This document shows, one piece after another, positions 7,941 to 32,000 of a DNA stretch of 32,000 bases. The stretch's first letter is position 1. Every line of letters begins with the position of its first letter. This DNA is from Candidatus Scalindua sp. (GTDB lineage Bacteria; Planctomycetota; Brocadiia; Brocadiales; Scalinduaceae), in contig JALDRA010000001.1 of NCBI GenBank assembly GCA_031316235.1, forward strand, positions 3,930,001-3,962,000, in the 5' to 3' direction. The notes beneath the pieces are model-generated. The model searched no databases and had not been told where the DNA came from. It worked only from the letters and a program-made list of their open reading frames with translations. Both the position numbers and the translations under genes were made by a program.

Positions 7941-7975
7941 AAAGGACGGTTTTTCACTGTAGCACCGGACGCAAC

Positions 7976-8656
7976 ATGACAAAAACAGAAAACGTGGTTA
8001 GAAACCAGAAAAACTCAAAGACACAAATCCCTTTAAGCTCTTTTTATGGTTTGCAATATTCTTTGTACTCACTTAATCTCGTTCTTTTCTGTGTAGTTAT
8101 ATTATTAAGTATTTTAAGTGTTGCAATATATTTCTTTTCTGCAGAAAAGAAAATTCCCGTATCACTTTCAAAAACAGATATTCCGGAAATGGCTCATTAT
8201 ATTGAAAATGCTAAGCTGGTTGGTATGATGTCGGATACAGATAAAAATGATACCGGGTATTTTGATATTGTTTCTTCCAGGAATATCTTTTCTCCTGCAA
8301 GGAAAGAGTGGGTGACAAAACCCAAAGTTCCGAAAAATCTTCCAACTGCAAAGAAAATAATCGAAAGAAAAAAAGAACCACCTAAACCACCCAGAAAGAT
8401 TATCCTATACGGAATTATCATGGCGGGTGACGTGAAAAAGGCCATGATAAATAACCCTCAGGTAGGTGTGAGAAATAAAAAAACCATCTATGTTGAAGAG
8501 GGAGAAGATATCGAGGGCTATAAGGTAAAGAGCATAGAAAAAGACAAGATAATATTGGACTGGCAAGGGAATGAAATGATTTTAAAACTGTATACAGGTT
8601 CAGAAGAAGGAAATAATTCACAGGAAAACAGTGGCCCAGAATCTGGTCCGAGATAG
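7976..8656 (+). CDS. GspC/PilP-like bitopic protein
   Basis: 226 aa. TM (LNLVLFCVVILLSILSVAIYFF) and a K/P-rich linker (KKEPPKPPRK). The C-terminal beta domain ILYGIIMAGDVKKAMINNP...YVEEGEDIEGYKVKSIEKDKIILDWQGNEMILKL resembles GspC-HR/PilP. Confidence 0.4.
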   Translation: MTKTENVVRNQKNSKTQIPLSSFYGLQYSLYSLNLVLFCVVILLSILSVAIYFFSAEKKIPVSLSKTDIPEMAHYIENAKLVGMMSDTDKNDTGYFDIVSSRNIFSPARKEWVTKPKVPKNLPTAKKIIERKKEPPKPPRKIILYGIIMAGDVKKAMINNPQVGVRNKKTIYVEEGEDIEGYKVKSIEKDKIILDWQGNEMILKLYTGSEEGNNSQENSGPESGPR

Positions 8657-8674
8657 TGTTTGAAAAGATAAAAC

Positions 8675-13041: not shown

Positions 13042-14015
13042 ATAAATCCCTTCATTGAACTATCCTCTGTACATTGTGTTCTGCCGTGATATTCACCCTC
13101 ATACTCCCTCAGCTGCTGCACCATATATTACATGTTTAATTAGAAACGACTGTTGAATAAAAGGATAGAAAAGTTCCCTCTTTATCGAGATTTCCAGTGG
13201 CTGGACCAGAATGGATACAGATCAAGATGATAATTATTCAGTCCATGAATGACAGGGCCCTGATGTGTTGCCGGCAATCAACGTTGGAGCAGGGCAGCTA
13301 ATCAGTTACGAGAAGGCACCAATTAATACCAATACTAGCATCTTCACTGACCATTTTATAGATATAATTTAAAGAATTCAAGCGATGTAACCATTCCATC
13401 ATCAGTACAAACAACAGAAATCTCCTGTATCATATTTTATTACGTGTTCAAAACTCCCAGCGGAAACATCCAGTACCTGCTGAAGTCGAATTCTCCCAAT
13501 GCTTTTGCCGAGACTTCGAGTCATGATTATATTCTGGTATTAACTTCATCGAACTTTCCACCTCGCATTTCATTAGACCGTCAGATAGCGGGTAAACAGC
13601 TGCAAGGTGAACTTCAAAACACATTTTCCTGGTACAGTACTTTGGATTTCAATTCTCTTAATCGCAGGTAATCCTGAACTATAGAGTATTTAACCTCTCG
13701 ATTCAGGAGGGCATTGTACCATAAAAAATTTCCTGATTCAATTAAACCCAACTGTCTGACACGGTAACGTCAACTGAGAGAAGAACGTATGGTTTAAAAG
13801 GATACATGAGTGTGTTGCCAGATGTTACCGGAGAAGGTTCTGACTTCGTGGTACAAACTCAATCCTGCCAGATAAAGATAGGATTATTATCTGCATATCG
13901 TGAGGGAGGTGTAAACTTCTCAGGAAGGATTCTTTAACAAAATCGTCTAAAGAATATGATAACTATGACGAAAATACCAGCATAACATCGAGTTTTAATC
14001 AAACAATTCTTAAAA

Positions 14016-14104
14016 CCTGAAAAAGGCAAACCGCTAGAAATAGTGGGACGCAAAATCATTGGCCTAAATCCTGTATATCAGGACATGGTTGCAATGCTGC
14101 CAGG
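14016..14104 (+). promoter_or_regulatory. c-di-GMP-I (GEMM-I) riboswitch aptamer
   Basis: CCUGAAAAAGGCAAACCGCUAGAAAUAGUGGGACGCAAAAUCAUUGGCCUAAAUCCUGUAUAUCAGGACAUGGUUGCAAUGCUGCCAGG. The blocks GGCAAACC, a GAAA tetraloop on the 6-bp stem CCGCUA/UAGUGG, UGGGACGCAAA and GGCCUAAA...CAUGG (tetraloop-receptor-like) are collinear with the V. cholerae Vc2 aptamer as I recall it. The apical stem is UCCUG/CAGGA and P1 is CCUG/CAGG. Confidence 0.75.
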
Positions 14105-16635: not shown

Positions 16636-19600
16636 TCAGTTGAAGGTGCGCTGATAGAATTTAAAGTTTGATCCCGGTGCCTTCTCCGCATAAAACATCA
16701 CTACGTTCCCGTTATAGAGGAGGAGCTTCGGCTGCCCAAAATGAGTCTGGTCCACATTGGTATATGTAGCATTCGATACGTGCATCCTGCTGGTCCATGT
16801 GTTGGCTGATTTATTATAGTACCAGTATGATGCCAGGTACTCTTCAGGGTCTTGCATATTTCCAAAGGGGTGGTTCGCGGAAGTCATCCAGACATCCCCA
16901 TTGGGTGCTACCAGTATGTCGGTGTTCGCTTCCCAATATTCGTACAGCTGCCAGACTTTCTGCAGCACATTCGGCTGCGTACTCTTGAAGTACCCGACTC
17001 CTTTGGGAGTCGGCGCCGCTTCAAAGATGGCCAGGTGAAGGGCTGAGTCACTGCCGATTGCACCTGACATGGCAAAGTCACCAACATATACATTGGGAAA
17101 AATGTCTTGAGCTGGGTTCCAGGTACCGTCTTTGCTCCTGATACGACGTTCAATTGCATTATTACTGTTAGAACTCGCATAACTTACATATAAAAAATGG
17201 GCATCCCCTTGCGAACTTATCTCTATCGTTCCGTTACCCGCCCCGAGGCTGCCGAAACCTGCCTTCCAGGACACGGGTGCTTCAAAGTTTGCCTGACCTG
17301 CGATCTTTCTTCGGTACAGAATACGGCTCTCCGCTTTCCAATCTGTATTTTGCCAATCGGTAGGGTATGACCACACAATCACATGAACGTTATCATTGCC
17401 GTCCACGGCTACCGCTGGCCCTGTGTCCTGGAAATTTGCGGTATCGTTTACCAGCACAGGGGTACTCCATGTCCCACTGGAATTTGAACGATACCAGCTG
17501 GCTGAACCGTTACTGGTCGAATAGACCAGATGCAATTTGTTAGCACTGTCAACCGCAAGGGAAAACTTTTTGTTTGTATTCAGGTGGCTGGCAAGCTGCG
17601 GGCTGCTCCACGTTGTTCCTCCATTGGTGGATTTGGAAAGATATAGTTTGTTATCCTGATTATAGACAAAATAAAGAGCAGTGGTAGTCGCCACAGCCTG
17701 AAAGGCAACATTATTGCTTACCTGGATGCTCCCGACCTGCATGATGCCGCTGGTGCCCGTATTGACAGTAACAGTCACCGTTGCCACATTAGAGGTAGCT
17801 CCCAGATTGTCATTCACCGTATAGGTAAAGGAGTCCTGTCCGGTAAATCCCGTGGCAGGTGTATAATCAACGGTACCATCAGCTTTTAGTGCCGCCGTGC
17901 CATTGGCTGGTGCCGATATTACGGCCACCGTGGCAGGGTCAATCGTACCGTCTGAATCGGTATCATTTGCTGTTACATTAATATTTACCAGGGTATCCAC
18001 TGTCGTTGCTGCAGTGTCGTTATTGGCAACAGGCGCCTGATTGCCGCCTCCCTGAGTCTGATACGTATAGTCTGTAAAGGTCCAGGCTTCAGTACCGATC
18101 TTCCACCATAATCTAACATACACCGTGTTCCCGTTTATGGGGATTCCAGTTACCTGTTGCGTTGTATTTGTCCCAGTTGTTGCGCCAAATATGTCCCCCC
18201 ATGGTGGTGTGCTTACTGATGTAAAGCTTGTACCTACTCCCAGCCAGTAGGAGGTAACACCGGCACCCGCGCTCCATTGAAAGGGAACCGTTGATACCGT
18301 TAAGGTCGAACCCGGTGCCGGACTTGTCATCGCAGGCGTACCTCCCGGATTGACTGTAACCGTCACGGTTGCCACGTTGGAGGTAGCTCCCAGATTGTCA
18401 TTCACTGTATAGGTAAAGGAGTCTTGTCCGGTAAATCCCGTGGCAGGTGTATAATCAACGGTACCGTCAGCTTTTAGTGCTGCCGTGCCATTGGCTGGCG
18501 CACTTATTACAGCGACAGTGGCAGGGTTAATCGTGCCGTCTGAATCGGTATCATTTGCTGTCACGTTAATATTTACCAGGGTATCCACTGTCGTTGCTGC
18601 AGTGTCGTTATTGGCTACAGGAGATAAATTCCCAGCATTGACCGTAACCGTCACGGTTGCCACGTTGGAGGTTGTCCCCAGATTGTCATTCACCGTATAG
18701 GTAAAGGAGTCCTGTCCGGTAAATCCCGTGGCAGGTGTATAATCAACGGTACCATCAGCTTTTAGTGCTGCCGTGCCATTGGCTGGTGCCGATATTATGG
18801 CCACCGTGGCAGGGTCAATCGTACCGTCTGAATCGGTATCATTTGCTGTTACATTAATATTTACCAGGGTATCCACTGTCGTTGTTGCAGTGTCGTTATT
18901 GGCAACAGGCGCCTGATTACCGCCTCCCTGAGTCTGATACGTATAGTCTGTAAAGGTCCAGACTTCAGTGCCGATCTTCCACCATAATCTAACATACACC
19001 GTGTTCCCGTTTATGGGGATTCCGGTTACCTGTTGCGTTGTATTTGTCCCAGTTGTTGCGCCAAATATGTCCCCCCATGGTGGTGTGCTTACTGATGTAA
19101 AGCTTGTACCTACTCCCAGCCAGTAGGAGGTAACACCGGCACCCGTGCTCCATTGAAAGGGAACCGTTGATACCGTTAAGGTCGAACCCGGTGCCGGACT
19201 TGTCATCGCAGGCGTACCTCCCGGATTGACCGTAACCGTCACGGTTGCCACGTTGGAGGTAGCTCCCAGATTGTCATTCACCGTATAGGTAAAGGAGTCC
19301 TGTCCGGTAAATCCCGTGGCAGGTGTATAATCAACGGTACCGTCAGCTTTTAGTGCTGCCGCGCCATTGGCTGGTGCACTTATTACAGCGACAGTGGCAG
19401 GGTAAATCGTGCCGTCTGAATCGGTATCATTTGCTGTCACGTTAATATTTACCAGGGTATCCACTGTCGTTGCTGCAGTGTCGTTATTGGCAACAGGCGC
19501 CTGATTGCCGCCTCCCTGTGTCTGGTACGTATAGTCGCTATAAGTCCACGCTCCAGTACCGATCTTCCACCATAATCTAACATACACCGGATTCCCGTTT

Positions 19601-21648
19601 ATGGGAATTCCGGTTACCTGTTGCGTTGTTCTTTTCAGTGTTGACGCGCCATATATGTCTCCATATGGTGGAGTATTTACTGATGTAAAGCTTGTACCTG
19701 CTCCCAGCCAATATACGCTAACTCCGGTACCAGTGCTCCATTGAAAGGTAACTGTTGATGTCGTTAAGGTTGAACCGGGTACTGGACTTGTCATCACAGG
19801 CGTACCTCCCGGGTTGACAGTTATCGTTACCGTTGACACGTTAGAGCTTGTTCCGCAGGCATCCGCAACCGTATAGGTAAAGCTATCCTGACCTGAAAAT
19901 CCTGTGACAGGTGTATAATCGACGGTCCCATCGGCCCTGGACACTGCCGTACCATTGCCGGGTACATCTGCAACCGTTACCGTGGCAGGGTTAATCGTAC
20001 CATCTATATCGTAATCATTGGCAATCACATTAATAGTAACAAGGGTGCCTTTCTGTGTCGCTGCGGAATCTACAATGGCTGCTGGAGGCGTGTTGGGCGG
20101 TGCATTCATAATGACGCTATTCATCACATCAAAAATATTTGTATTATCAAGATAGGCACCGCGGTATGTGTCAGTTTCCGTTGCATAGGTCGCAAACAGT
20201 CCTGCGCCAACACCACGTACAAAAAGTGGCACCAGACTGTTTGAATGATCACCCCTATTCCATACCCAGTATACTGTTTCTCCTGTATCAATACTGTTGT
20301 TACTATTGGAGTCTTTCCAGCTTGCACGGAGTCCCCCTGTGCCGGCAACAATCTTTTCCAATGCAAGTGTGGTGTCGCTGATATCAGGAAATCGGCCGAG
20401 AGGGTCATTCTGATCGTAACGCGGATCTGAAGTGTCCGTTATAAAATTACGGCTGGGAGTGAGATAGCCGGTTTCATGGTCGCTTGTGACAATAACCAGT
20501 GTGTTGTTCCAGCTGCTATCATTCGTTTCATCTTCCACCCAGTCAATGACAGCCTGTACCGCTGCATCAAAATCTCTCTTTTCTCCTATCATATCATCCA
20601 TCATATTAGCATGTGCTGCCCAATCAACAGCCCCTCCCTCAATCATAAGAACAAAACCGTTTGAATTACGACCCAGGACGGTCAAGGCAGCATTGGTGCT
20701 ATCTACAAGTGTCGGATTTTCGAGGTTCGGGTTGGTTGTAACGGTTCCGGCAAAGCCGGAATCGTCGGCAGTGTGATAGATATGATCAAACAACCCTGCC
20801 AGTCTGGTTACTCCGGGATTATTGGCTGCGGCTGACAAGGCATCGCCGCCATCTACTCCCGTTGTACGCTCCACGAGGGTATAACTGTTATCATTTATCA
20901 GCTTATCCCTGATAGCAGAATTAACGTATCCACTTCTTCTGTCTCCGATGAGAACATCAACCGTTGGAAGTGTTGACCCATGCCCGCCCACATACAACGG
21001 GTCCAGAGGTGGCGTACAGGTAGTACAGGTAGAATTCGGGTTTCCGAAAAGTCCTTCATCCGCAATAGCATAGCCATTACCACGATCGTTATTGTGAGAT
21101 GTCCAGGCACCGGGTGTTGCGTGTGAAACAGGCACAGTGGTAATAGCGCCAACTGCCATATTCAATGTTTTTGCTATCTCTCCAATACTCAATAAACGGT
21201 CAGCATCATCCGCTGTGACACTGATATTCTTTTTTGCTGTCTTTGTACCAGAGTAAAGCGCGCTTGCTGCCGCAGCACTGTCAGTTATATTCTTGGCACT
21301 GTCTGATATCACGTAACTGAAACTGTTCCAGCAGCTTGTTGTGTTATAACTACCTCCGGAATGGAAAGTTGAGACAAAGTAATTCAGCCATTCAGGAGCA
21401 GACTGGTAATAGGGGGTAACACCCGTATATTTATTCGTGGCTTCATTATGTTTTATCCCGTTTCCGTCTGCAATCATCAAAATGATATACTTGGCACTGG
21501 ATGAACATTGACCATATACGTTCTTATGCAATATAAAGGGGACAAAAAACATAAGAAAGAAAATCAGGAATAGATGTGAGGGGAAAGACAAAAGGTTTCT
21601 CTTCTGTTTTGTCTCTTTGTTAATGTCAACCAGGCTATGATTCGTCAT
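16636..21648 (-). CDS. Giant signal-anchored surface protein: alkaline phosphatase domain + cadherin-like/VCBS-type Ig repeats + FQW-YWLGVGTS domains + BNR/sialidase-like beta-propeller
   Basis: 1670 aa with an N-terminal anchor (LFLIFFLMFFVPFIL). PhoA-family motifs: MIADGNG, TDSAAAASALYSGTKT (D-S nucleophile), EGGAVDWAAHAN and TSDHETGY. Five ~95-aa modules follow (VNINVTANDTDSDGTI...DGTVDYTPATGFTGQDSFTYTV), interleaved with three FQW domains. The C-terminal ~365 aa carry Asp-box-like STNGGTTWS. Confidence 0.88.
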   Translation of the reverse strand: MTNHSLVDINKETKQKRNLLSFPSHLFLIFFLMFFVPFILHKNVYGQCSSSAKYIILMIADGNGIKHNEATNKYTGVTPYYQSAPEWLNYFVSTFHSGGSYNTTSCWNSFSYVISDSAKNITDSAAAASALYSGTKTAKKNISVTADDADRLLSIGEIAKTLNMAVGAITTVPVSHATPGAWTSHNNDRGNGYAIADEGLFGNPNSTCTTCTPPLDPLYVGGHGSTLPTVDVLIGDRRSGYVNSAIRDKLINDNSYTLVERTTGVDGGDALSAAANNPGVTRLAGLFDHIYHTADDSGFAGTVTTNPNLENPTLVDSTNAALTVLGRNSNGFVLMIEGGAVDWAAHANMMDDMIGEKRDFDAAVQAVIDWVEDETNDSSWNNTLVIVTSDHETGYLTPSRNFITDTSDPRYDQNDPLGRFPDISDTTLALEKIVAGTGGLRASWKDSNSNNSIDTGETVYWVWNRGDHSNSLVPLFVRGVGAGLFATYATETDTYRGAYLDNTNIFDVMNSVIMNAPPNTPPAAIVDSAATQKGTLVTINVIANDYDIDGTINPATVTVADVPGNGTAVSRADGTVDYTPVTGFSGQDSFTYTVADACGTSSNVSTVTITVNPGGTPVMTSPVPGSTLTTSTVTFQWSTGTGVSVYWLGAGTSFTSVNTPPYGDIYGASTLKRTTQQVTGIPINGNPVYVRLWWKIGTGAWTYSDYTYQTQGGGNQAPVANNDTAATTVDTLVNINVTANDTDSDGTIYPATVAVISAPANGAAALKADGTVDYTPATGFTGQDSFTYTVNDNLGATSNVATVTVTVNPGGTPAMTSPAPGSTLTVSTVPFQWSTGAGVTSYWLGVGTSFTSVSTPPWGDIFGATTGTNTTQQVTGIPINGNTVYVRLWWKIGTEVWTFTDYTYQTQGGGNQAPVANNDTATTTVDTLVNINVTANDTDSDGTIDPATVAIISAPANGTAALKADGTVDYTPATGFTGQDSFTYTVNDNLGTTSNVATVTVTVNAGNLSPVANNDTAATTVDTLVNINVTANDTDSDGTINPATVAVISAPANGTAALKADGTVDYTPATGFTGQDSFTYTVNDNLGATSNVATVTVTVNPGGTPAMTSPAPGSTLTVSTVPFQWSAGAGVTSYWLGVGTSFTSVSTPPWGDIFGATTGTNTTQQVTGIPINGNTVYVRLWWKIGTEAWTFTDYTYQTQGGGNQAPVANNDTAATTVDTLVNINVTANDTDSDGTIDPATVAVISAPANGTAALKADGTVDYTPATGFTGQDSFTYTVNDNLGATSNVATVTVTVNTGTSGIMQVGSIQVSNNVAFQAVATTTALYFVYNQDNKLYLSKSTNGGTTWSSPQLASHLNTNKKFSLAVDSANKLHLVYSTSNGSASWYRSNSSGTWSTPVLVNDTANFQDTGPAVAVDGNDNVHVIVWSYPTDWQNTDWKAESRILYRRKIAGQANFEAPVSWKAGFGSLGAGNGTIEISSQGDAHFLYVSYASSNSNNAIERRIRSKDGTWNPAQDIFPNVYVGDFAMSGAIGSDSALHLAIFEAAPTPKGVGYFKSTQPNVLQKVWQLYEYWEANTDILVAPNGDVWMTSANHPFGNMQDPEEYLASYWYYNKSANTWTSRMHVSNATYTNVDQTHFGQPKLLLYNGNVVMFYAEKAPGSNFKFYQRTFN
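17761..19490 (-). repeat. 2 x 876-bp in-frame tandem segmental duplication inside the giant gene (roughly 98% identical by eye)
   Basis: The marker CCGCCTCCCTGAGTCTGATACG occurs at 18044 and 18920 (offset 876 = 292 codons). ATTGAC(A/C)GTAAC occurs at 17761 and 18637. I counted about 11 differences in ~580 aligned bases. Older, more diverged copies extend to ~20090. Confidence 0.9.
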
Positions 21649-21704: not shown

Positions 21705-22493
21705 TTATTGCGCACCTTTAATTTCATAGATCTGTAATTGTGGATTGCAATAGAAATCATTACTGTTGATATCATCATTTAAGACCTCGATACTCAGAAC
21801 GTTTCTCCCCTTATGCATCTCTTCTTCCCAGGCGCTGATATCGAAACTCTCAACAAGTTTAGCTGAGTTTTCAATAATTTTAATCCCGTTAAGAAAAACA
21901 CGGAACGCAGAATCAGTATTCAACTTTAAAAAGATTTTCTCTATTTTATTAACATCATTGACAGCAAAATCACGTCGCACAAATAATTTCTTATAGTTGC
22001 CTTGCATGGCAGCGAGATCAGTCTTGATATTAGGATTTTCTCCGATCTTACTATATCCAAAACCGCTTTTCCCTCTTTTCCACTTACTATCATCAAAATC
22101 AATACGGTTCCAGTTGTCCGGAGGATTTTTTACACCTTCGAAGTACCTCCATTCGGTTGTAAAACCAACATCTATCACCTTTTTGCCAATGGCAAGTGTC
22201 GGAAATTCAATTCCAGGATTGATACGGTTTTTTTTAACATCGATAATTGCTAACGGTAAAGTAACAACTGGAGGATTTATAATAGTCGGAGCATCTAAGT
22301 TGACACTATCTGGTGATGATTGTTCACTCTTTAATGGTTCCGCTTGTATACTGTGTAAAGATATTCCCAAGGCACAGAGTATCAGGATAAACGTAAGGAA
22401 AAAGCTAAAATTAACTTGAAAGGGACCATTTGAACCTGTGAGGCTTCTCAATCTATTTGTTGGATTAACAACATTCATTTTTATCGACTCCAA
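21705..22493 (-). CDS. Signal-anchored protein with C-terminal galactose-binding-like (jelly-roll) domain
   Basis: 262 aa (TTG start; an alternative ATG lies at 22478). TM is FSFFLTFILILCALGISL. EWRYFEGVKNPPDNWNRIDFDDSKWKRGKSGFGYS...LFVRRDFAV...LKLNTDSAFRVFLNGIKI resembles the W.Y....P..W....FDDS.W..G...FGY module seen on many surface proteins. It ends 56 nt upstream of the giant gene, so co-transcription is likely. Confidence 0.6.
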   Translation of the reverse strand: MESIKMNVVNPTNRLRSLTGSNGPFQVNFSFFLTFILILCALGISLHSIQAEPLKSEQSSPDSVNLDAPTIINPPVVTLPLAIIDVKKNRINPGIEFPTLAIGKKVIDVGFTTEWRYFEGVKNPPDNWNRIDFDDSKWKRGKSGFGYSKIGENPNIKTDLAAMQGNYKKLFVRRDFAVNDVNKIEKIFLKLNTDSAFRVFLNGIKIIENSAKLVESFDISAWEEEMHKGRNVLSIEVLNDDINSNDFYCNPQLQIYEIKGAQ

Positions 22494-22960: not shown

Positions 22961-23015
22961 AAAAAAAAAACCTTACTGCTGAAGATATTTCTATAAATCC
23001 CCCTCGGCAGTAAGG
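22961..23015 (-). terminator. Intrinsic terminator (expression platform of riboswitch 2)
   Basis: Minus-strand RNA CCUUACUGC (23015-23007) pairs with GCAGUAAGG (22979-22971), followed by U10 (22970-22961). The 5' arm overlaps the 3' strands of the aptamer helices. Confidence 0.65.
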
Positions 23016-23100
23016 CTCTCGTCTCATGCAGTTTCCTTCGACCCTTTGCTTTGCGCCACCTTATCTCTAAGGTGCTGCCGTACTTATAGATATATACTTC
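23005..23100 (-). promoter_or_regulatory. c-di-GMP-I-like (GEMM-I) riboswitch aptamer, second and more divergent copy
   Basis: Minus strand: GAAGUAUAUAUCUAUAAGUACGGCAGCACCUUAGAGAUAAGGUGGCGCAAAGCAAAGGGUCGAAGGAAACUGCAUGAGACGAGAGCCUUACUGCCG. GGCA, then a 7-bp stem CACCUUA/UAAGGUG with GNRA loop GAGA, then GCGCAAAGC is collinear with copy 1. P1 is CGGCAG/CUGCCG and the P3 candidate is AGGGUC/GAC(GAGAG)CCU. Confidence 0.55.
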
Positions 23101-24166: not shown

Positions 24167-24634
24167 TCAGACCGCACCCTTCCCGCCGTTTTCTTCTTCT
24201 CCGCCATCAGCACTCTCATCCTCTCCTGTTTCTCTATTTTTTCGTTTCATCTTTCGAACTTCTTTCTCTTTTTGTCGTGCAATTTTCTTAGATTCTCGTT
24301 CTGCTTTCCGGGCCTGTTTTTCATTCTTCCGAATCTCCCTGGCTGCTCTACCCTCAGCTTTACGAGCTTCTTTCTCCTTTTTTCGTTCAGCCTTCCCGAT
24401 TTCACGTTCGCCTTTGCGGGCTTCCCTTTCACTTTCTCGTGTATACTTTTTTTCCTCACGGGATTCCTCACGTAATTCCTTTCTGTATCCTCTTTCATCT
24501 TCTCGCTCAGCTTTATGTTTTTCTACCCATTCTGGTTTGCCGGCCCATTCAGGCTTCCCTGCAATTGCATAGTTTGCAGTGGGTAAAATAGCAAAGAAAC
24601 AAATTATCATCATCACGCCTATTTTTACTTTCAT
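24167..24634 (-). CDS. Secreted, hyper-charged K/E/R-rich low-complexity protein
   Basis: 155 aa with a convincing signal peptide (MKVKIGVMMIICFFAILPTANYAIAG) and a GKPEWAGKPEW duplication. About 110 aa of E/R/K repeats follow (EREARKGEREIGKAERKKEKEARKAEGRAAREIRKNEKQARKAERESKK), then an acidic G/E tail. Confidence 0.55.
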   Translation of the reverse strand: MKVKIGVMMIICFFAILPTANYAIAGKPEWAGKPEWVEKHKAEREDERGYRKELREESREEKKYTRESEREARKGEREIGKAERKKEKEARKAEGRAAREIRKNEKQARKAERESKKIARQKEKEVRKMKRKNRETGEDESADGGEEENGGKGAV

Positions 24635-25031: not shown

Positions 25032-25291
25032 TTTTGTCTCTTCCTGATTTGTGAAACCAGAAAACAGTACTCTTTAAAATGATATTTCTTCGAATGGTAT
25101 ATTCTTCAGCAGTTTAAGGTACTATATGAGCATTTATTTCTTTACAATTCTGAGTGAAAATAGTAGATTACGTACTTTATTCTGTAAGAAGATTGATTGA
25201 CCAATCACATTACAGAAATGCACCCACCTTTATGATGTCTGATTAGTTATCATTCATACTGGTAAAAAACAATTTACTCAATTCAATAAGT

Positions 25292-25460
25292 GTATAGATT
25301 AAAACCGATTTGATTTTAGATTTTTCTAAAAACCAGAGCCCGGTTAATGGTATCCCCGGACCAGGCGCCGAGGACTTTCCCCGGACAAAAAACGCCGAGG
25401 ACTTGTACTCGCTCCTTTTTTCTCGGATTTTGTCCGAAAACAGTTGTAAGATGAGTATAC
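25292..25460 (+). repeat. Copy 3 of the structured repeat, carrying a ~55-nt GC-rich insertion
   Basis: GTATAGATTAAAACCGATTTGATTTTAGATTTTTCTAAAAACCAGAGCCCGG...[insert]...ACTTGTACTCGCTCCTTTTTTCTCGGATTTTGTCCGAAAACAGTTGTAAGATGAGTATAC. It ends 7 nt before ATG 25468. Confidence 0.75.
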
Positions 25461-25467
25461 ACAAAGA

Positions 25468-27261
25468 ATGCAGAATACCTTTAATGTAATTGTAGCTACA
25501 GATTGTGGCAGCACGACAACCAAGGCAATACTTATAGAAAAGAAGGGAAATGAGTACAGGCAGACCTTCAGGGGTGAAGCTCCGACAACGGTTGAGTCGC
25601 CATTTGAAGATGTGACCAGGGGAGTTCTCAACTCGTTTGCAGAACTTGAAGAGCTGTCTGGCCGTAAGTTGCTCGACGGAGAGAAAATTATCATGCCGGC
25701 AAATGACCTTACCGGTGTTGACATGTACATCTCTACCAGCAGCGCGGGCGGGGGACTTCAGATGATGGTTGCAGGCGCAGTCAAGACGATGACGGCCCAG
25801 AGCGCTCAGATGGCGGCACTGGGTGCCGGTGCAATCGTGATGGACGTTATAGCGTCTAATGATAAACGTCTGCCTCATGAGAAGATTGAAAGAATACGGT
25901 ATCTTCGACCGGATATGATACTGCTCGCGGGCGGGACGGATGGCGGGACAGTTACCCACGTTGTAGAACTGGCTGAATATATCGCTGCTGCCAATCCTAA
26001 ACCGAGGCTTGGTACAACATTTCAGCTACCCGTTATTTATGCTGGCAATAAAGAGGCGAGGGACAGGATCAGGGAGGTTTTGGGGAGTAAGACGGCATTG
26101 AGGATAACGGAAAATCTGCGTCCGCAACTTGAAAGAGAAAATCTCAATCCTGCAAGAAAAGAGATCCAAAGCCTCTTCCTGGAGCATGTAATGGCTCATG
26201 CTCCAGGTTATGACAAATTGATGTCCTGGACAAGTGCCCCCATAATGCCGACACCCGCCGCAGTGGGTGCAATAATTAAGGCAATTGCCAAAAAGGACGC
26301 TATTAATGTTGTTGGCGTTGATATCGGCGGGGCGACAACAGATGTGTTTTCAGTATTTGATGGTATTTTCAATAGAACGGTAAGCGCAAATTATGGTATG
26401 AGTTACAGTATATCAAATGTGGTTGCGGAAACTGGTATTGAAAATATCATGAAGTGGCTCTCTTTTGAAGTGGACGAAGCAGACGTTCAAAACAGGATTA
26501 AGAACAAGATGATTCGTCCTACCACGATACCGCAGTTATTGGAAGATCTCAAGATAGAGCATGCTTTAGCACGTGAGGCGCTAAAATTAGCCTTTGAACA
26601 GCACAAGTCCCTTGCAGTGACTTTAAGAGGCGTACAGAGAGGGAGGGACATATCCGAGACATTTAAGCAGACTGAGGACCAGGAAACTCTCATTGATATG
26701 AATAAGCTCGACCTCATCGTAGGCAGCGGTGGTGTCTTGTCACATGCCCCGAGAAGGTCTCAGGCAATGATGATGATGATTGATGCATTCCAGCCTCAGG
26801 GGGTCACGATGCTTGCCGTAGACAGTATTTTCATGATGCCTCACCTTGGAGTACTTTCCACAATAAATGAGCAGGCGGCAACTGAGGTTTTTGAGAAAGA
26901 CTGCCTGGTATATCTCGGCCATTGTGTCTCGCTGACAAACGCGGGGAAACAGGGTAGTAAATGTCTCGAATACCGAATTGTCTTTCAGGATAAACAGGAA
27001 AAAAAAGAAACACTTCTCTACGGTGAACTCAGATGTATTGATTTGCCTGTGGGTGAAGAGGCTGAAATCGAACTGACGCCTGCCAGGCAGTTCGATCTGG
27101 GAAGAGGTAAAGGACAGAAGGTTACAGGAAAAGTTACTGGCGGTGTCGTTGGTCTTATTATCGATACGAGAGGGAGGCCGCTTTCGATTCCGGGTGATAA
27201 AGAGTTGCAGAAAGAGAAAATTTCAAAGTGGAGCAAGGCGTTTCAAGCCTATCCTGATTAA
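25468..27261 (+). CDS. MutL/GlmL-family ASKHA (actin-fold) ATPase, orphan (no B12 mutase partner in window)
   Basis: 597 aa. Phosphate-1 motif VATDCGSTTTKAILI, second-lobe motif VGVDIGGATTDVFSV and adenosine motif LIVGSGGVLSHAP. An extra ~130-aa C-terminal domain is present. Confidence 0.8.
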   Translation: MQNTFNVIVATDCGSTTTKAILIEKKGNEYRQTFRGEAPTTVESPFEDVTRGVLNSFAELEELSGRKLLDGEKIIMPANDLTGVDMYISTSSAGGGLQMMVAGAVKTMTAQSAQMAALGAGAIVMDVIASNDKRLPHEKIERIRYLRPDMILLAGGTDGGTVTHVVELAEYIAAANPKPRLGTTFQLPVIYAGNKEARDRIREVLGSKTALRITENLRPQLERENLNPARKEIQSLFLEHVMAHAPGYDKLMSWTSAPIMPTPAAVGAIIKAIAKKDAINVVGVDIGGATTDVFSVFDGIFNRTVSANYGMSYSISNVVAETGIENIMKWLSFEVDEADVQNRIKNKMIRPTTIPQLLEDLKIEHALAREALKLAFEQHKSLAVTLRGVQRGRDISETFKQTEDQETLIDMNKLDLIVGSGGVLSHAPRRSQAMMMMIDAFQPQGVTMLAVDSIFMMPHLGVLSTINEQAATEVFEKDCLVYLGHCVSLTNAGKQGSKCLEYRIVFQDKQEKKETLLYGELRCIDLPVGEEAEIELTPARQFDLGRGKGQKVTGKVTGGVVGLIIDTRGRPLSIPGDKELQKEKISKWSKAFQAYPD

Positions 27262-27306
27262 GGCAGTGACCAAATTAATTTACCGTATCTGAACTGATTA
27301 AAAATT

Positions 27307-28455
27307 ATGACACATGCTTATACTCCCGGCTTAAAGTTGTCCGAGAAAATGGTAATCAGAAAAAAACGCTTCCTGCCTCTTCCCGGTGATGTAACTGTGG
27401 CAAAAGGTGACATGGTGAAGTGTGAGGATATTGTTGCGAAAACAACCCTGCCTGGAAAAGTTCATTCTCTGAATGTGGTAAACCGTCTTGGTATTTTACC
27501 AAAAGACATACACAGTTTTATGCTGAAGGGAGTGGGAGAAGATGTGCAGAAAGACGAGCCGATAGCAGAGACGAAGCCGATTTTTAAGTTTTTTAAGTCT
27601 GTCTGTTTTTCTCCCATCACGGGTAAAATAGAAAGTGTTTCTGACATTACCGGTCAGGTACTATTGAGACGACCACCTCTTCCGGTACAGGTAAGTGCAT
27701 TTGTTGACGGTAAGGTTGTAGAAGTTTTTGAACAGGAAGGTGTGGTAATTGCAACAACAGCAACGTTTATTCAAGGAATTTTTGGTATAGGAGGTGAAAC
27801 CACCGGTGAATTAGCGATTGTTGCAAAATCAGCCCAGGACATTATAAAAACTTCTGATTTGCAGAAGGAACACGAGGGGAAGATCATTGTTGCTGGTTCT
27901 CTCATACAGTATGATGTGATACAAAAATCGTTGGATATCGGTATAAAAGGTATTATCGTTGGTGGTGTTAAGGTTAATGATGTAAATCAGTTGCTCGGTT
28001 ATGATCTGGGGGTTGCAATCACAGGCTCTGAAGATATAAATATTACCCTTATCGTTACGGAAGGTTTTGGACAAATTGATATGGCACAAAAGACATTCGA
28101 AGTCTTACAATCGCGAGCTGGTTCTCTGGCATCAATAAGTGGTGCAACCCAGATACGTGCCGGTGTTGTCAGACCGGAAATAATTATACCATTTAAAGAA
28201 AAAGATGGAACTTCAGGGCTTGAATCACCATCAGGTGCTCCTGCCCAGGAAGAGACTGTCGGGATTAAAACCGGAGACCCTGTCCGTATTACGAGAACAC
28301 CGTATTTTGGAAAGATCGGCAATGTCAGGGATCTCCCGAGTGAATTAAGAAAGATAGAGACAGAAGCTGTTGTTCGGGTCATAGAAGTTGAATTTCCTGA
28401 TGGTCAGTCTGTTGTCATACCACGATCGAATGTAGAGGCGATAGAGGGCGGATAA
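27307..28455 (+). CDS. Soluble protein of unknown function: barrel-sandwich (lipoyl-like) halves + alpha/beta core + KOW/SH3-like C-terminus
   Basis: 382 aa with no TM. PGDVTVAKGDMVKCEDIVAKT and SPITGKIESVSD form the barrel-sandwich halves. The C-terminal region reads GDPVRITRTPYFGKIGNV...VRVIEVEFPDGQSVVIPRSNVEAI. It starts 45 nt after the ATPase gene. Confidence 0.7.
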   Translation: MTHAYTPGLKLSEKMVIRKKRFLPLPGDVTVAKGDMVKCEDIVAKTTLPGKVHSLNVVNRLGILPKDIHSFMLKGVGEDVQKDEPIAETKPIFKFFKSVCFSPITGKIESVSDITGQVLLRRPPLPVQVSAFVDGKVVEVFEQEGVVIATTATFIQGIFGIGGETTGELAIVAKSAQDIIKTSDLQKEHEGKIIVAGSLIQYDVIQKSLDIGIKGIIVGGVKVNDVNQLLGYDLGVAITGSEDINITLIVTEGFGQIDMAQKTFEVLQSRAGSLASISGATQIRAGVVRPEIIIPFKEKDGTSGLESPSGAPAQEETVGIKTGDPVRITRTPYFGKIGNVRDLPSELRKIETEAVVRVIEVEFPDGQSVVIPRSNVEAIEGG

Positions 28456-28492
28456 AAAGTGAGATGAGTTCCTTCAGATTAAGAGTATAAAA

Positions 28493-29713
28493 ATGTACAA
28501 AATTTTTTCTACAGTAATTTCTATCATATTGGTTTTCTCGTACGCCGGTCAAATCTCTGGAGCTGATCAGAAGATCATTATCTCCCCGACAGATTTCGAG
28601 GCCTTTGATACCCCTTCTGACGATGGGACAAGTGTATCACTCAGATGGCCATCCAGCCCCAGTGAATCACCAGATGCGGAATATGTTGTGTACGTGTCAG
28701 AGAACAGAAATGGACCGTTTGTTACAGAGGTATTGAGAATAAATTCTCAAACCATGTATGAAGACAACTCTCACTCTCAATTTCATTATGTCGAGGTCAA
28801 TCCAGGAAAGATCTTAAGCAGGAAGGGAGAGCGGAAAAACAACAGAAAGGAGAAGGAGGAACATTTCTTCAAGCTTGTCCTTATGTCAGGCAGCAGTACG
28901 GTTGAAACGAAAAATATCGCGTCTGCTTTTTCAAGGGGTGATTGGTTTGATTGGAAAAAGCTCAATAATTTTGTGTTAATGATCTCTTTTGTAGTACTCG
29001 TACTATTTTTTCTTAACCACGCTAAAAAGAGCCCTAACCTCTTCATCAGAAAGATAAACGGTCTTGATGCTATTGATGAGGCGCTGGGAAGAGCAACGGA
29101 AATGGGAAAGCCTGCACTCTTTGTTCACGGTCTGAACGGTATGGGAAGTATTTCCACCATCGCTGCAGTAAATATTCTTGGAAGAATTGCATACAGGATT
29201 GCCGAATATGATACAACACTCAAGGTTTCCAATATCGATCCGATTGTGATGTCTGTCAGTCAGGAGGTCGTCAAGGAGTCATACCTTGAAGCAGGAAGAC
29301 CTGATGCATACGTTCAAGACAACATATTTCTGGCTGCTTCTGAACAATTCCCCTATGTTGCGGCGGTGAGTGGGATAATGGTACGCGAGAAACCTGCGAC
29401 AAATTTTTTCATGGGTTATTTCTATGCAGAATCTCTTATTCTTACAGAAACTGGTGCAAATACAGGAGCTATTCAGATTGCGGCTACAGATTCATATACC
29501 CAACTTCCCTTTTTTATCACAACCTGTGATTATACCCTCATTGGAGAAGAGCTCTATGCGGCCAGTGCATATTTGTCTCGAGAGCCTTTGCTTCTGGGCA
29601 GTTTACGTGCACAGGATGTCGGGAAGGGAGTCTTGATTGCAGCTCTCGTCATAGGAACAATACTTGTTACTTGCGGCATTGGGTTTGTACGTTATCTTTT
29701 TATGGCAGGATAA
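28493..29713 (+). CDS. Membrane protein of unknown function (signal peptide, small beta domain, TM, ~200-aa domain, C-terminal TM)
   Basis: 406 aa. Signal peptide ILVFSYAGQISGA, first TM FVLMISFVVLVLFFL, C-terminal TM GVLIAALVIGTILVTCGIGFV. It starts 37 nt after the previous gene. Confidence 0.7.
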   Translation: MYKIFSTVISIILVFSYAGQISGADQKIIISPTDFEAFDTPSDDGTSVSLRWPSSPSESPDAEYVVYVSENRNGPFVTEVLRINSQTMYEDNSHSQFHYVEVNPGKILSRKGERKNNRKEKEEHFFKLVLMSGSSTVETKNIASAFSRGDWFDWKKLNNFVLMISFVVLVLFFLNHAKKSPNLFIRKINGLDAIDEALGRATEMGKPALFVHGLNGMGSISTIAAVNILGRIAYRIAEYDTTLKVSNIDPIVMSVSQEVVKESYLEAGRPDAYVQDNIFLAASEQFPYVAAVSGIMVREKPATNFFMGYFYAESLILTETGANTGAIQIAATDSYTQLPFFITTCDYTLIGEELYAASAYLSREPLLLGSLRAQDVGKGVLIAALVIGTILVTCGIGFVRYLFMAG

Positions 29714-29772
29714 GAAGACTGACCGGGTAATACCATATGAACCTAAAGCCCCTACTTGAAAATTTGTAGTTT

Positions 29773-29890
29773 CTATACTCACCTTATAATGGTTTTTCGG
29801 ATAAAATCCGAGAGAAAACGGAGCAAGTATGACTGTAACCAAGCTTTGGTTTTTAGAAAAATCTAAAACCAAAGCTTGGTTGCAGTATAT
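29773..29890 (-). repeat. Copy 2 of the structured repeat (inverted relative to copies 1 and 3)
   Basis: Reverse complement: ATATACTGCAACCAAGCTTTGGTTTTAGATTTTTCTAAAAACCAAAGCTTGGTTACAGTCATACTTGCTCCGTTTTCTCTCGGATTTTATCCGAAAAACCATTATAAGGTGAGTATAG. It contains a near-perfect ~19-bp hairpin. Confidence 0.8.
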
Positions 29891-30009
29891 CTTAAAAAAT
29901 AGATGAGAACCGGATATATTTCAGAACTGCCGGTAATTCCCGAATGGGTAGATTGGTTGTGAGAGTTGTATACTTTCAGCCAGGTGTAAAGAGAGGAGCA
30001 ACAGAGTAG

Positions 30010-30663
30010 ATGAATTTTTTCAAGAGAACTGTCCCCTTATTCATTGCATTCACTATGGGGGTAATGATGGCTTTTCAATACTATGTTCCGCATGAGATGT
30101 CACAGTCCCTGTTAAAGATTGTTTCACGGTGGGGTATTACAATAGGAGGTTTTGCCGTTTTTTTAGGCGCTTACAGCCTCTTCCATCTTCACCTGACGAA
30201 AATCAAGCGAAAACTCTCCGGTTGGGGATATAGCATATTTGTTTTTTTTGGTGCCGGAATTACCATAATTTTTGGCCTCTATAATGGTGGAGAGTTCTTC
30301 TGGAATGACAAGCAGGAAGGAACCATGTTTGAATGGATATACTTCAACGTACAGGTTCCTGCCGGTGCAACCATGTTTTCTATCTTGGCATTTTTTATGG
30401 CATCAGCCGCATACAGGACATTCAAGGCCAGGACGAATGAGGCTACTATTCTCCTCATTGCTGCCATCATAGTAATGCTTGGCCGTGTACCGATAGGTAC
30501 AATGATTTCGCAATACATCCCTGTTGCAGCGGACTGGATCATGTCTGTTCCTAACATGGCGGCAAAAAGAGGCATATTAATCGGTGTATCAATTGGAGCT
30601 ATTGCAACATCGTTAAAGATAATTTTTGGTATTGAAAGGGCATACCTTGGAGGTGGAGATTGA
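30010..30663 (+). CDS. Polytopic membrane protein, unknown function
   Basis: 217 aa with about six hydrophobic segments. AGAGGAG lies 12 nt upstream of the ATG. Confidence 0.7.
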   Translation: MNFFKRTVPLFIAFTMGVMMAFQYYVPHEMSQSLLKIVSRWGITIGGFAVFLGAYSLFHLHLTKIKRKLSGWGYSIFVFFGAGITIIFGLYNGGEFFWNDKQEGTMFEWIYFNVQVPAGATMFSILAFFMASAAYRTFKARTNEATILLIAAIIVMLGRVPIGTMISQYIPVAADWIMSVPNMAAKRGILIGVSIGAIATSLKIIFGIERAYLGGGD

Positions 30664-31472
30664 TAGAAAGGTTGATCAATATTGACAGACGCTTGATCTT
30701 TGTGCTTGTTGCAATGGCGGTAACCATCCCTCTTCTTGCCAGATTTAATTTGCCTGTGCGTACTACGAAAGAGGTGGAGAACATCTATAATAAAATCAAT
30801 TCTCTCCCGAAGAATTCACACATCCTTATTGCCTTTGATTATGACCCTGCATCAAAGGAGGAACTCCAACCAATGGCTGAGGCATTACTCCATCACTGTT
30901 ACCGCAACGATATCAAGGTGGTTGGCATGACACTGAATCCAGGTGGTACCGGTCTGGCGGTAAGAGCCATTGAGGATATTGGAAAAGAGTATGGTAAAAC
31001 AAAAGGTGCCGACTTTGTCTTTCTCGGGTATAAGACAGGGGTTGAGCTGGTTATGATAAATATGGGTGAAAATATCTTTTCAGCCTTTCCGCAGGACTTT
31101 CATGGTAATGCGACAATTGATTTACCGGTACTCAATGGTGTTGATTCTCTGGAGGATTTCGATTATGTTGTCGACCTGGCATCTGGTTCAAGCATCGAGG
31201 CATGGATTGCATTTGGAAAAGAGAAATATGGATTTGATTTTGGTGCAGGATGTACGGCCGTAATAGGACCTGACATGTATCCTTTCATGCAGTCTGAGCA
31301 GCTGAATGGATTGATGAGTGGTTTAAAGGGTGCTGCCGAGTATGAAACACTCATTGAACGGGAATCATCTGCTGTTGCCGGGATGTCTCCTCAGAGTGTA
31401 GTTCATGTGCTTGTCGTCCTGTTCGTACTATTTGGAAATGCTATGTACTTTCTGAGCAGAAAGAAGAGATAA
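30660..31472 (+). CDS. Bitopic membrane protein with ~210-aa soluble domain, unknown function
   Basis: 270 aa. The TTG start overlaps the previous stop (TTGA). The N-terminal TM is LIFVLVAMAVTIPLL and the C-terminal TM is VVHVLVVLFVLFGNAMYFL. Confidence 0.65.
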   Translation: MIERLINIDRRLIFVLVAMAVTIPLLARFNLPVRTTKEVENIYNKINSLPKNSHILIAFDYDPASKEELQPMAEALLHHCYRNDIKVVGMTLNPGGTGLAVRAIEDIGKEYGKTKGADFVFLGYKTGVELVMINMGENIFSAFPQDFHGNATIDLPVLNGVDSLEDFDYVVDLASGSSIEAWIAFGKEKYGFDFGAGCTAVIGPDMYPFMQSEQLNGLMSGLKGAAEYETLIERESSAVAGMSPQSVVHVLVVLFVLFGNAMYFLSRKKR

Positions 31473-32000
31473 ATGATCAAAAGAAACAGAGACCTGTACA
31501 TTCTATTATCAATCCTCATACTGTTCTTTATTGTAAACATCATTTACCTCTCTTTTGGCTGGCTTGATCTATGGGGTAATGGGGCAGGCATAATTACGGG
31601 TGCAGCATTTACGCTTGCCATGTATAGTTTTCTCTATAAAGACAACCCCGTATTTAAAATTGCCGAAAACCTGTTTGTGGGAGTTGCCATGGGATATTGG
31701 ATTATAATCACCTGGTTTAATATCCTCAAACCGGATGTCTTTGAAACCTTGATCGTTCCGATCTTTAAAGATACGGGAAATCCTCCTCAATTTGGTGTTC
31801 TCTTTCCAACACTTCTTGGCATATTCATGCTCTTACGGTTTTCTAAGAAGCTGGCATGGCTCAGCAGATGGTCATTTGCATTTATTGTCGGCCTCGGAGC
31901 AGGAATCACCATTCCTAACTTTATTCATGCGTTTATCTTGAAACAGCTCACGTTTGATTCCTTAATTAGCACAAGTATTCCCGCCAGTATGAACAATTTC
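31473..32000 (+). CDS. Polytopic membrane protein, unknown function (5' part; open to window end)
   Basis: The ATG abuts the previous stop (TAAATG). I read 176 codons without a stop: MIKRNRDLYILLSILILFFIVNIIYLSFGW...FAFIVGLGAGITIPNFIHAF. It is absent from the ORF track because no stop lies in the window. Confidence 0.65.
   Translation, partial: MIKRNRDLYILLSILILFFIVNIIYLSFGWLDLWGNGAGIITGAAFTLAMYSFLYKDNPVFKIAENLFVGVAMGYWIIITWFNILKPDVFETLIVPIFKDTGNPPQFGVLFPTLLGIFMLLRFSKKLAWLSRWSFAFIVGLGAGITIPNFIHAFILKQLTFDSLISTSIPASMNNF

Follow-up and report, generated by a model that had tools for sequence, protein, structure and literature searches.

A MutL-family ASKHA ATPase, a barrel-sandwich/KOW protein and four membrane proteins form a gene set conserved across bacterial phyla: a candidate inner-membrane complex of the cell envelope

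Introduction

Reactivases of the ASKHA superfamily and Hsp70s use their common fold to perform mechanical work on a partner protein. Within this superfamily, GlmL/MutL, which assists the coenzyme-B12 glutamate (methylaspartate) mutase, and the related Or-4 protein of ornithine fermentation (PF13941, TIGR01319, NF040745, NF040744) are encoded beside glmS/glmE or oraS/oraE. Another architecture with a soluble and a membrane part is found in Na+-NQR and Rnf, where NqrA or RnfC, which carries an N-terminal barrel-sandwich domain, is soluble and belongs to a complex with polytopic membrane subunits. Here we analyze a gene cluster at the end of a 32,000-nucleotide (nt) stretch of DNA from Candidatus Scalindua sp., an anammox bacterium of the Planctomycetota (contig JALDRA010000001.1, positions 3,930,001 to 3,962,000, hereafter the window). 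Its first gene, g1, shares with GlmL and Or-4 the Pfam family, the ASKHA motifs and the affinity to the hydantoinase branch, but its neighbors are a barrel-sandwich/KOW protein (g2) and four membrane proteins (g3-g6) instead of mutase genes. We propose that the cluster encodes the core of a widespread, chromosomal and uncharacterized inner-membrane complex that would be driven or switched by ATP and would act on the cell envelope, a reading for which we find the case for and against about evenly balanced.

Results

Organization of the cluster

The initial annotation had described a six-gene operon running to the end of the window. When the open reading frames (ORFs) were re-read, six co-directional ORFs were found at 25468-32000, as claimed (Table 1), and the reported spacings of 45, 37, 296, -4 and 0 nt were all reproduced. 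The TTGA overlap between the g4 stop and the g5 TTG start, and the TAAATG junction between the g5 stop and the g6 ATG, were both read directly and point to tight coupling of g4, g5 and g6 in this genome. Furthermore, the TTG start of g5 is preceded 5 nt upstream by GGAGG. Two of the genes, g2 and g3, are identical (100%) to MRK01_16555 and MRK01_16560 of Candidatus Scalindua sp.

As g6 runs past the window end, we retrieved a 4.8-kb contig (L001) by an exact look-up of g5. This contig agrees with the window at every one of the 2157 nt that they share and contains the complete g6 (1630-2367), which encodes 245 amino acids (aa) and stops 210 nt past the window end. It is followed 3' by three convergent genes, whose products are two bactofilins and a protein of 322 aa (weak ArgZ-like match). 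Thus, no mutase gene follows beyond position 32000, and subunits of a B12-dependent mutase or aminomutase, which had been named beforehand as a finding that would speak against the proposal, are not present there.

Table 1. Location of the cluster genes, associated elements and other features. Plain positions refer to the window; positions after an L number refer to the related locus of that number.
Feature	Position	Strand	Description
g1	25468-27261	+	597 aa
g2	27307-28455	+	382 aa
g3	28493-29713	+	406 aa
g3-g4 spacer	29714-30009	none	296 nt, with inserted palindromic repeat element
g4	30010-30663	+	217 aa
g5	30660-31472	+	270 aa, TTG start
g6	31473-32000	+	176 of 245 aa inside window
Repeat element, copy 1	~25290-25460	+	~130-170 nt, directly upstream of g1
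Repeat element, copy 2	~29765-29900	-	inverted, inside g3-g4 spacer
g0, examples	L002:285-611, L016:5700-6071, L165:8642-8971		
gm1, examples	L019:4948-5403, L081:1126-1569		
Memo-like (PF01875) gene, mostly Nitrospirota	e.g. L016:12797-14047	same strand	14-84 nt 3' of g6, 32 of 160 loci
g1, extra 257-aa gene, g2 and complete tolQ-tolR-tolA-tolB-pal-cpoB cluster, Zixibacteria and Ignavibacteriales	e.g. L168:7331-16248		tol-pal genes directly 3' of g2
Two bactofilins, this Scalindua lineage	L001:3587-4144 and L001:4224-4748	-	same arrangement in L084
Lone g2, WOR-3 and Stahlbacteria	L057:9064-11629, L063:9131-11549		then PorV-like/unassigned protein, accA (acetyl-CoA carboxylase carboxyltransferase alpha), DUF4388/PATAN-domain protein
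Cyclic di-GMP-I riboswitch aptamer (RF01051)	14015-14104	+	68 bits
Cyclic di-GMP-I riboswitch aptamer (RF01051)	23003-23089	-	42 bits
420-aa protein with C-terminal PilN domain	6104-7366	+	possible PilM-PilN fusion
PilC/T2SSF protein	8675-9877	+	two unassigned ORFs also in set
155-aa ORF	24167-24634	-	signal-peptide-like N-terminus, then extremely Lys/Glu/Arg-rich low complexity

The gene set recurs across phyla

To place the cluster in a wider context, we searched with g2 and examined the neighborhoods of its homologues. Among 1.84 billion representatives, 2322 clusters (50% identity) matched g2 at E <= 1e-3, of which 416 had E <= 1e-30, and a pattern scan of GTDB, with each species represented by one genome, showed that at least 577 species encode g2. 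The 80 best g2 loci, with taxon labels taken from the records of metagenome-assembled genomes (MAGs), came from Brocadiales (Scalindua, Brocadia, Anammoxibacter), other Planctomycetota, Phycisphaerae and many Nitrospirota including Nitrospira; from Poribacteria, Zixibacteria, Eisenbacteria, Latescibacterota, WOR-3, Stahlbacteria, Ignavibacteriales and a Bdellovibrionales MAG; and from single MAGs labeled Dormiibacterota, Synergistia and Thermodesulfobacteriota. Searches for plasmid copies of g2 or g3 gave no matches.

Enough flanking DNA to count neighbors was available for 51 genome loci. The order g1-g2-g3-g4-g5-g6 on one strand was observed in 25 of these, including loci from Planctomycetota, Nitrospirota, Eisenbacteria, Latescibacterota and Dormiibacterota, and a further 6 of the 51 kept all six genes after block swaps or inversions. 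We also searched in the reverse direction, from g3 in metagenome contigs. Here g3-g4-g5-g6 were found together almost always, with g4 invariably after g3 in the related loci, and where at least 4.5 kb of flanking sequence was available on both sides, g1 and g2, preceded by an additional gene (g0, see below), stood ahead of g3-g6 in 14 of 20 loci. The earlier expectation that the gene order would be conserved in other genomes was thus tested from g2 and from g3, and the order recurs across phyla in both. Recurrence of one gene set at dozens of loci in several phyla goes far beyond what chance would produce.

The claim of a six-gene operon as a single, complete unit needs to be revised in two respects. 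First, the six co-directional genes are an incomplete version of a conserved unit that mostly has seven or eight genes. Second, the conserved set separates into two blocks, g0-g1-g2 and g3-g6; in Brocadia, g1-g2 and g3-g6 are both kept, at different loci, and in Zixibacteria the membrane block is duplicated. In several rearranged loci adjacency has nevertheless been kept (L019, L024, L026, L043, L068, L071, L076), which argues for functional coupling of the blocks as opposed to inherited gene order. Adjacency that survives rearrangement, fusion of genes in some lineages (see below) and recovery from both search directions together make it very likely, as far as sequence comparison can tell, that the two blocks are functionally linked.

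Two upstream genes are missing from the window

Most relatives have an additional gene, g0, immediately 5' of g1. Its product of ~110-140 aa has the consensus ...VPAILFLES.KPLNFLGSQ..., and 61 of 160 scanned loci contained matches to a g0 protein. A second gene, gm1, is often found 5' of g0 and encodes a protein of ~150 aa that combines two transmembrane (TM) segments with a beta domain that looks PH-like. No Pfam family was found for either, and profile comparison did not relate g0 or gm1 to g3 or g5. Neither gene was found by tblastn and hidden Markov model searches of the six-frame translation of the window and of its closest relative, L084; g0 is present in other Scalindua (L002, L003). 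In L090 and L133, g0 accompanies g3-g6 with g1-g2 missing.

g1 is a predicted ATPase of the MutL family that lacks a mutase partner

Residues 8-479 of g1 match PF13941 (MutL) with 440 bits against a gathering cut-off of 27 (E = 1.2e-131). This region contains a phosphate-1 motif, ATDCGSTTTKA (10-20), a phosphate-2 motif, DIGGATTD (285-292), and an adenosine motif, GSGGVLSHAP (419-428). All three were invariant or nearly so in sets of 48 and 31 homologues from many phyla, in agreement with the initial description of g1 as an ASKHA protein of the MutL/GlmL type. With its motifs intact and its membership in the ASKHA superfamily, g1 is predicted to be an ATPase. The protein is also predicted to be cytoplasmic. 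Secondary Pfam matches were obtained to Hydantoinase_A (23.5 bits, cut-off 22.9) and Hydant_A_N, and a match to MreB-like_C remained far under its cut-off of 27.8 (16.7 bits, E = 0.012). Neither a sequence nor a Pfam match to the DDR, EutA or HSP70 families was reported, and no relatives of solved structure were detectable by sequence or profile search. The ~120 C-terminal residues (480-597) form an extension that the Pfam MutL match does not cover; hhalign profile comparison rejected a relationship of this extension to g2, g3 or g5.

Membership in Pfam MutL, and the public name 'glutamate mutase L' of a fused homologue, would be expected if g1 were a conventional GlmL/MutL reactivase for a B12-dependent mutase of glutamate or ornithine whose genes lie at another place in this genome. 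However, g1 falls below the cut-offs of all three dedicated models, with 244.8 bits against NF040745 (GlmL; cut-off 475), 223.4 bits against NF040744 (Or-4; cut-off 600) and 180 bits against the subfamily model TIGR01319 (cut-off 204.05), and the C-terminal extension also sets it apart. Furthermore, no Pfam family of the GlmS/GlmE type was present among the ORFs of the window or the downstream genes, a B12-binding motif occurred nowhere in the 32-kb window and in just 3 of 168 related loci, and the conserved neighbors are g0, g2 and g3-g6, not glmS/glmE. The orphan status attributed to g1 therefore stands for the window and the genes downstream, a role as helper of a B12 mutase is largely refuted, and we regard the reactivase explanation as essentially excluded.

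g2 combines barrel-sandwich halves with a KOW-like tail and is fused to g1 in some lineages

An AlphaFold2 model of g2, built with 47 diverse homologues, had a mean predicted local distance difference test score (pLDDT) of 90.7 and a predicted template modeling score of 0.76. It comprises barrel-sandwich-hybrid beta domains (~10-171), a small beta-alpha-beta domain (~190-295), a disordered linker and a five-stranded KOW/SH3-like tail (~320-380). The barrel-sandwich halves and the KOW-like tail read from the sequence at the outset are thus confirmed by the model, and by Foldseek, in which the tail matched the KOW domain of SPT5 over 58 columns with a template modeling score of 0.79-0.80 and a root-mean-square deviation of 1.4-1.7 A. 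Other domain-level Foldseek matches were to NusG, uL24 and PetP, the middle domain gave weak PA-domain-like matches, and no match was obtained for the whole chain.

In the window's g2 no Pfam family was found above threshold, and RnfC_N reached 14.8 bits against a cut-off of 25.6. Homologues of g2 gave stronger Pfam matches to RnfC_N, Biotin_lipoyl and KOW, and one to NQRA; in homologue P0240, for instance, KOW scored 23.1 bits (cut-off 22.3), and the UniRef name of some homologues is 'KOW domain-containing protein'. A lipoyl or biotinyl carrier was considered and rejected as the principal reading: in the consensus, the positions that form the carrier hairpin lack a conserved Lys, which makes such a function unlikely, and the neighbors gcvP (Eisenbacteria) and lipA (some Nitrospira) are lineage-specific. 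No enzyme family matched g2 by sequence or by fold. Its alpha/beta domain contains the invariant Gly/Thr/Arg-rich motifs TEGFG and GATQIRAG-RPE.

In two separate protein clusters (P0151/P0392 and P0211), each present on several contigs, g1 and g2 are fused in a single protein of 995-1003 aa. One of these clusters has 12 members and the other is from Candidatus Ozemobacteraceae. In the only fusion context that was readable, that of P0392, the fusion occupies the usual place of g1 and g2, after a g0-like gene and ahead of a DUF6754 gene and three genes of 232, 293 and 311 aa. The fusions are further evidence for the view that g1 and g2 form a soluble pair. Public names of these proteins vary: the g2 homologue of Candidatus Scalindua japonica is annotated as 'tRNA-dihydrouridine synthase' and the g1-g2 fusion of Ozemobacteraceae as 'glutamate mutase L' (P0091, P0402), both of which look like mis-annotations.

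The membrane block contains a DUF6754 protein and three proteins of no described family

The membrane topology of g3-g6 was predicted from hydropathy and the positive-inside rule. g3 consists of a signal peptide, an FN3-like beta-sandwich (~30-150), a TM segment (157-175), a DUF6754 domain and a second TM segment (380-398); residues 149-399 match PF20539 (DUF6754) with 397.3 bits against a cut-off of 27 (E = 3e-119). The match of the g3 profile to FN3-like N-terminal domains was weak (E = 0.0045). In an AlphaFold2 model built with 28 homologues of at least 60% identity, the beta-sandwich reached a pLDDT of ~70-83, while the overall value was 48.6 and the DUF6754 part was unusable. About 48 columns of the DUF6754 domain are invariant across phyla. 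Since g3 carries a signal peptide, its DUF6754 domain is predicted to be cytoplasmic.

By hydropathy, g4 has ~6 TM segments, and its conservation peaks in TM4 and the Arg-rich loop that follows (R136, R139, R141). g5, initially described as bitopic, has a TM segment at each end, which enclose a soluble domain of ~210 aa. Its C-terminus is strongly basic (SRKKR), and by the positive-inside rule the soluble domain probably faces the periplasm. The short N-terminal tail of g5 contains a conserved D-R-R motif in which R10 and R11 are invariant. g6 is polytopic with ~7-8 TM segments. Distant paralogy between the soluble domains of g3 and g5, an initial impression, found no support in family alignments (hhalign probability 0.2%), and paralogy of g4 and g6, as of every pair compared, was rejected at the level of sequence profiles (0.1-0.6%).

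Among the last five products, none of which had been recognized at first, g3 can now be placed in DUF6754, and g2 (above threshold), g4, g5 and g6 still match no family. No Pfam match was found in any of 91 members of the membrane protein families (32 for g4, 33 for g5 and 26 for g6), none of the three had a sequence relative in the PDB or a match in NCBIfam, and Pfam and NCBIfam together gave only MutL and DUF6754 for the six proteins. Profile searches of all six families against solved structures returned only KOW-level and weak FN3-level matches, and none of the six proteins matched a PADLOC defense-system model. As judged from the Pfam, NCBIfam and PDB searches, g3-g6 thus lie outside the characterized transporter and respiratory families. 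The three findings named beforehand as contrary to the proposal, a mutase downstream, placement in a known family and a gene order that is not conserved, were all looked for, and none was made.

These results also bear on the possibility that the cluster encodes two linked but physically separate modules, with g1-g2 as a soluble ATP-dependent enzyme, similar to hydantoinase, oxoprolinase or acetone carboxylase, or as a chaperone, and g3-g6 as a transporter that brings in or takes away its substrate, such that the gene neighborhood reflects a shared pathway and not one complex. The secondary hydantoinase matches of g1 fit such an enzyme, the two invariant motifs of g2 might make up a site for catalysis or ligand binding, g4 and g6 resemble transporter subunits in being polytopic, and the blocks do occur apart, in Brocadia as described above and in Poribacteria, WOR-3 and Stahlbacteria, where none of the other five genes lies within 8 kb of g2. 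However, a partner of the Hydantoinase_B type is missing, the lack of an enzyme-family match for g2 and of a transporter-family match for g3-g6 argues against both halves of this explanation, and g0, which goes with either block, ties the two together. Moreover, conservation in the membrane block peaks in the ~200-aa DUF6754 domain, which, if cytoplasmic as predicted, resembles a docking or catalytic partner more than a permease. We therefore consider two separate modules unlikely, and favor a single complex of the soluble pair and the membrane block.

Genomic neighbors suggest a possible link with the cell envelope

We next examined the genes that flank the cluster and found that the only recurring theme among them is the cell envelope and membrane. 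A recurrent neighbor, a Memo-like gene, was found mostly in Nitrospirota (Table 1); it carries an N-terminal extension of ~120 aa. In Zixibacteria and Ignavibacteriales the tol-pal genes follow g2, and an extra 257-aa protein with a signal peptide and a C-terminal TM segment is encoded between g1 and g2; the tol-pal arrangement was also seen in L027, L062, L068, L070, L072, L076, L102, L106 and L119. In Brocadia, FloA adjoins the g3-g6 block. The fused version of g1-g2 has cdsA and yegS as neighbors, and lipid-synthesis genes were rejected as recurrent neighbors as CdsA and YegS were found beside no other locus. In the window's own lineage, two bactofilins lie 3' of the cluster, one of which, on L001, has an N-terminal Cys-rich region resembling a zinc ribbon. 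The 322-aa gene next to them has a weak match to the Rossmann domain ArgZ-like_C and converges on the cluster end, also in L084.

Neighbors of this kind raise the question of whether g1 could be a scaffold or nucleotide switch without motor function, comparable to PilM, FtsA, MreB or GspL, that organizes a membrane platform for cell shape or division and binds a conserved peptide at the cytoplasmic N-terminus of a membrane protein, such as g5 with its D-R-R motif. The layout is analogous to that of PilM-PilN-PilO, in which an ASKHA protein stands beside small membrane proteins with periplasmic domains, and the two invariant arginines in the g5 tail, the weak MreB-like_C match of g1 and the presence of bactofilins (Scalindua), FloA (Brocadia) and Tol-Pal (FCB phyla, i.e. 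the Fibrobacteres-Chlorobi-Bacteroidetes group) beside the cluster are in line with it. Yet each of these neighbors occurs in one lineage, the MreB-like_C match is well below its cut-off, and the MutL/hydantoinase branch is not known to us to polymerize or to scaffold. As the full conservation of the catalytic motifs of g1 fits an active ATPase better, we consider a purely scaffolding g1 quite improbable and prefer an ATPase that acts on the membrane block.

A repeat element has inserted into the cluster of this genome

The 296-nt gap between g3 and g4 contains one of two alignable copies of a repeat element, of which the other lies upstream of g1 (Table 1). Inverted repeats (I1, I2) and an internal palindrome (I3) were recognized here. 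A 24-mer of the repeat occurs 2 times in the window against 0 expected, and a near-perfect palindrome of 22 bp lies within the copy in the spacer; the RNA of the spacer is predicted to form a long hairpin (-88.4 kcal/mol, z = -5.8). Apart from L001, which overlaps the window, no other fetched locus contained the repeat 22-mer, not even the 83%-identical L084. In other Scalindua just 27 to 113 nt separate g3 from g4; the long gap of this genome is therefore a recent, lineage-specific insertion of the repeat and no feature of the system. The repeat may be an element like a MITE (miniature inverted-repeat transposable element) or a REP (repetitive extragenic palindrome), and the structured insertion may split transcription of the cluster in this genome; promoter and terminator scans gave background levels.

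Other features of the window

Elsewhere in the window, two cyclic di-GMP-I riboswitch aptamers were found. The first lies upstream of a 756-aa surface-type protein with Big_9, PKD and fn3 domains (14164-16434), and the second upstream of a 262-aa ORF (21705-22493) and a 1670-aa protein with alkaline-phosphatase, cadherin and Big_9 domains (16636-21648), within the gene of which the GC content rises to ~0.50. This suggests control of large adhesin-like proteins by cyclic di-GMP. A set of genes resembling those of type IV pili or type II secretion (6104-9877, + strand) is separate from the cluster. No Pfam family was found for the Lys/Glu/Arg-rich 155-aa ORF, and L084 has a 141-aa ORF at the corresponding position.

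Discussion

The picture that we derive from comparative genomics, in which the proteins are known from their genes, is the following. Since g1 and g2 are fused in some lineages, they would act as one functional unit. This pair would dock on the cytoplasmic face of an inner-membrane assembly of four subunits, g3, g4, g5 and g6, for which the DUF6754 domain of g3 and the invariant D-R-R tail of g5 are candidate docking sites. We infer that energy would flow from the soluble pair to the membrane, in that binding and hydrolysis of ATP by g1 would drive or gate a conformational change in g3-g6, and that this change would either be passed on to the FN3-like domain of g3 and the soluble domain of g5, both placed in the periplasm by the predicted topology, or move a substrate across the membrane. 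A role in the envelope is suggested by the signal peptide and FN3-like ectodomain of g3 and by the adjacency to tol-pal-cpoB in Zixibacteria and Ignavibacteriales. Whether the cluster goes further and represents a new class of envelope machine, with a motor from the MutL clade of ASKHA proteins in place of an ABC, AAA+, P-type or rotary ATPase, a barrel-sandwich/KOW adaptor, an inner-membrane complex of four subunits whose families lack known relatives, a housekeeping-like character and a wide occurrence in nitrite oxidizers (Nitrospira), anammox bacteria and many uncultivated phyla of the FCB and PVC groups, is a more tentative proposition, which we put forward with some reserve.

Several observations weigh against this picture. 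The two blocks do not always travel together: 7 of the 51 g2 loci contain g1-g2 only, 13 of the 51 (in Poribacteria, WOR-3 and Stahlbacteria) contain g2 alone within 8 kb, and g3-g6 occurred without g1-g2 in 3-4 of the 20 g3 loci. With a pLDDT of 48.6 the DUF6754 domain, and with it its fold, is without a usable model, and the side of the membrane on which it lies stays predicted. The TM segments of g4 and g6 contain no conserved acidic residues and thus give no hint of ion coupling. The Tol-Pal adjacency occurs only in FCB lineages that are related to one another, and may be synteny retained by descent. Furthermore, those relatives of g1 that have been characterized act as soluble accessory proteins or as enzymes, and no ASKHA protein of the MutL/hydantoinase branch is known to us to power a membrane transporter or an envelope machine; a literature search likewise returned no example.

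If the six proteins do form one complex, it would represent an energy-coupling principle so far undescribed in bacterial membranes, in which an ATPase of the Hsp70/actin fold drives a membrane assembly. Those MutL proteins that have no mutase and are now mis-annotated as 'glutamate mutase L' would also gain a role, and DUF6754 and four families without a Pfam entry a context. The organisms that carry the cluster are environmentally important and hard to study, among them the nitrite-oxidizing Nitrospira, the anammox Brocadiales, Poribacteria, Zixibacteria and WOR-3, and a conserved envelope function could bear on how the envelope is built or maintained in these diderm lineages. Some of the carriers can be grown, for instance Nitrospira and anammox enrichments.

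How does the cluster compare with described systems? To our knowledge no membrane system with this ATPase clade or with these membrane subunits has been characterized. g3 is a full-length member of DUF6754 (PF20539), a family without a described function, while no described family includes g2, g4, g5, g6 or g0, and public annotations of the homologues include 'hypothetical protein' and 'KOW domain-containing protein'. A literature search found no paper on DUF6754, PF13941 or this cluster; the constant company that DUF6754 keeps in the loci compared here, namely a MutL-like ATPase, g2 and another three membrane proteins, appears not to have been described before. FcmB, a newly described bacterial actin, was considered and is unrelated, being derived from ParM. 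With respect to ABC and MacB-type systems, Pfam and NCBIfam identified neither an ABC ATPase nor a recognized permease family among g4-g6.

GlmL and Or-4 are the closest described relatives of g1, and they differ from it in their genomic company, which for g1 consists of g0, g2-g6 and the Memo-like gene, as well as in the ~120-aa extension of g1, its occasional fusion to g2 and its scores below all three NCBIfam cut-offs. In PilM-PilN-PilO, GspL-GspM, FtsA and MreB-RodZ, an actin-fold cytoplasmic protein likewise stands beside small membrane proteins with periplasmic domains. This likeness is not one of homology, as the PilM, PilN and PilO families miss g1-g6 and g1 is of the hydantoinase/MutL branch. 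NqrA and RnfC resemble g2 in that they start with a barrel-sandwich hybrid followed by an alpha/beta domain. In contrast to these subunits, the sequence of g2 has no motifs for flavin mononucleotide or Fe-S/Cys clusters and no SLBB domain, and has a KOW tail instead; moreover, g4 and g6 are neither of the Rnf-Nqr membrane family nor paralogues of each other. Finally, the diol dehydratase reactivase DdrA, EutA, presumably GlmL, and Hsp70/DnaK offer an analogy, with no claim of membership, for an ATPase of the same fold that works on a partner; the presumed client of g1 would be a membrane assembly.

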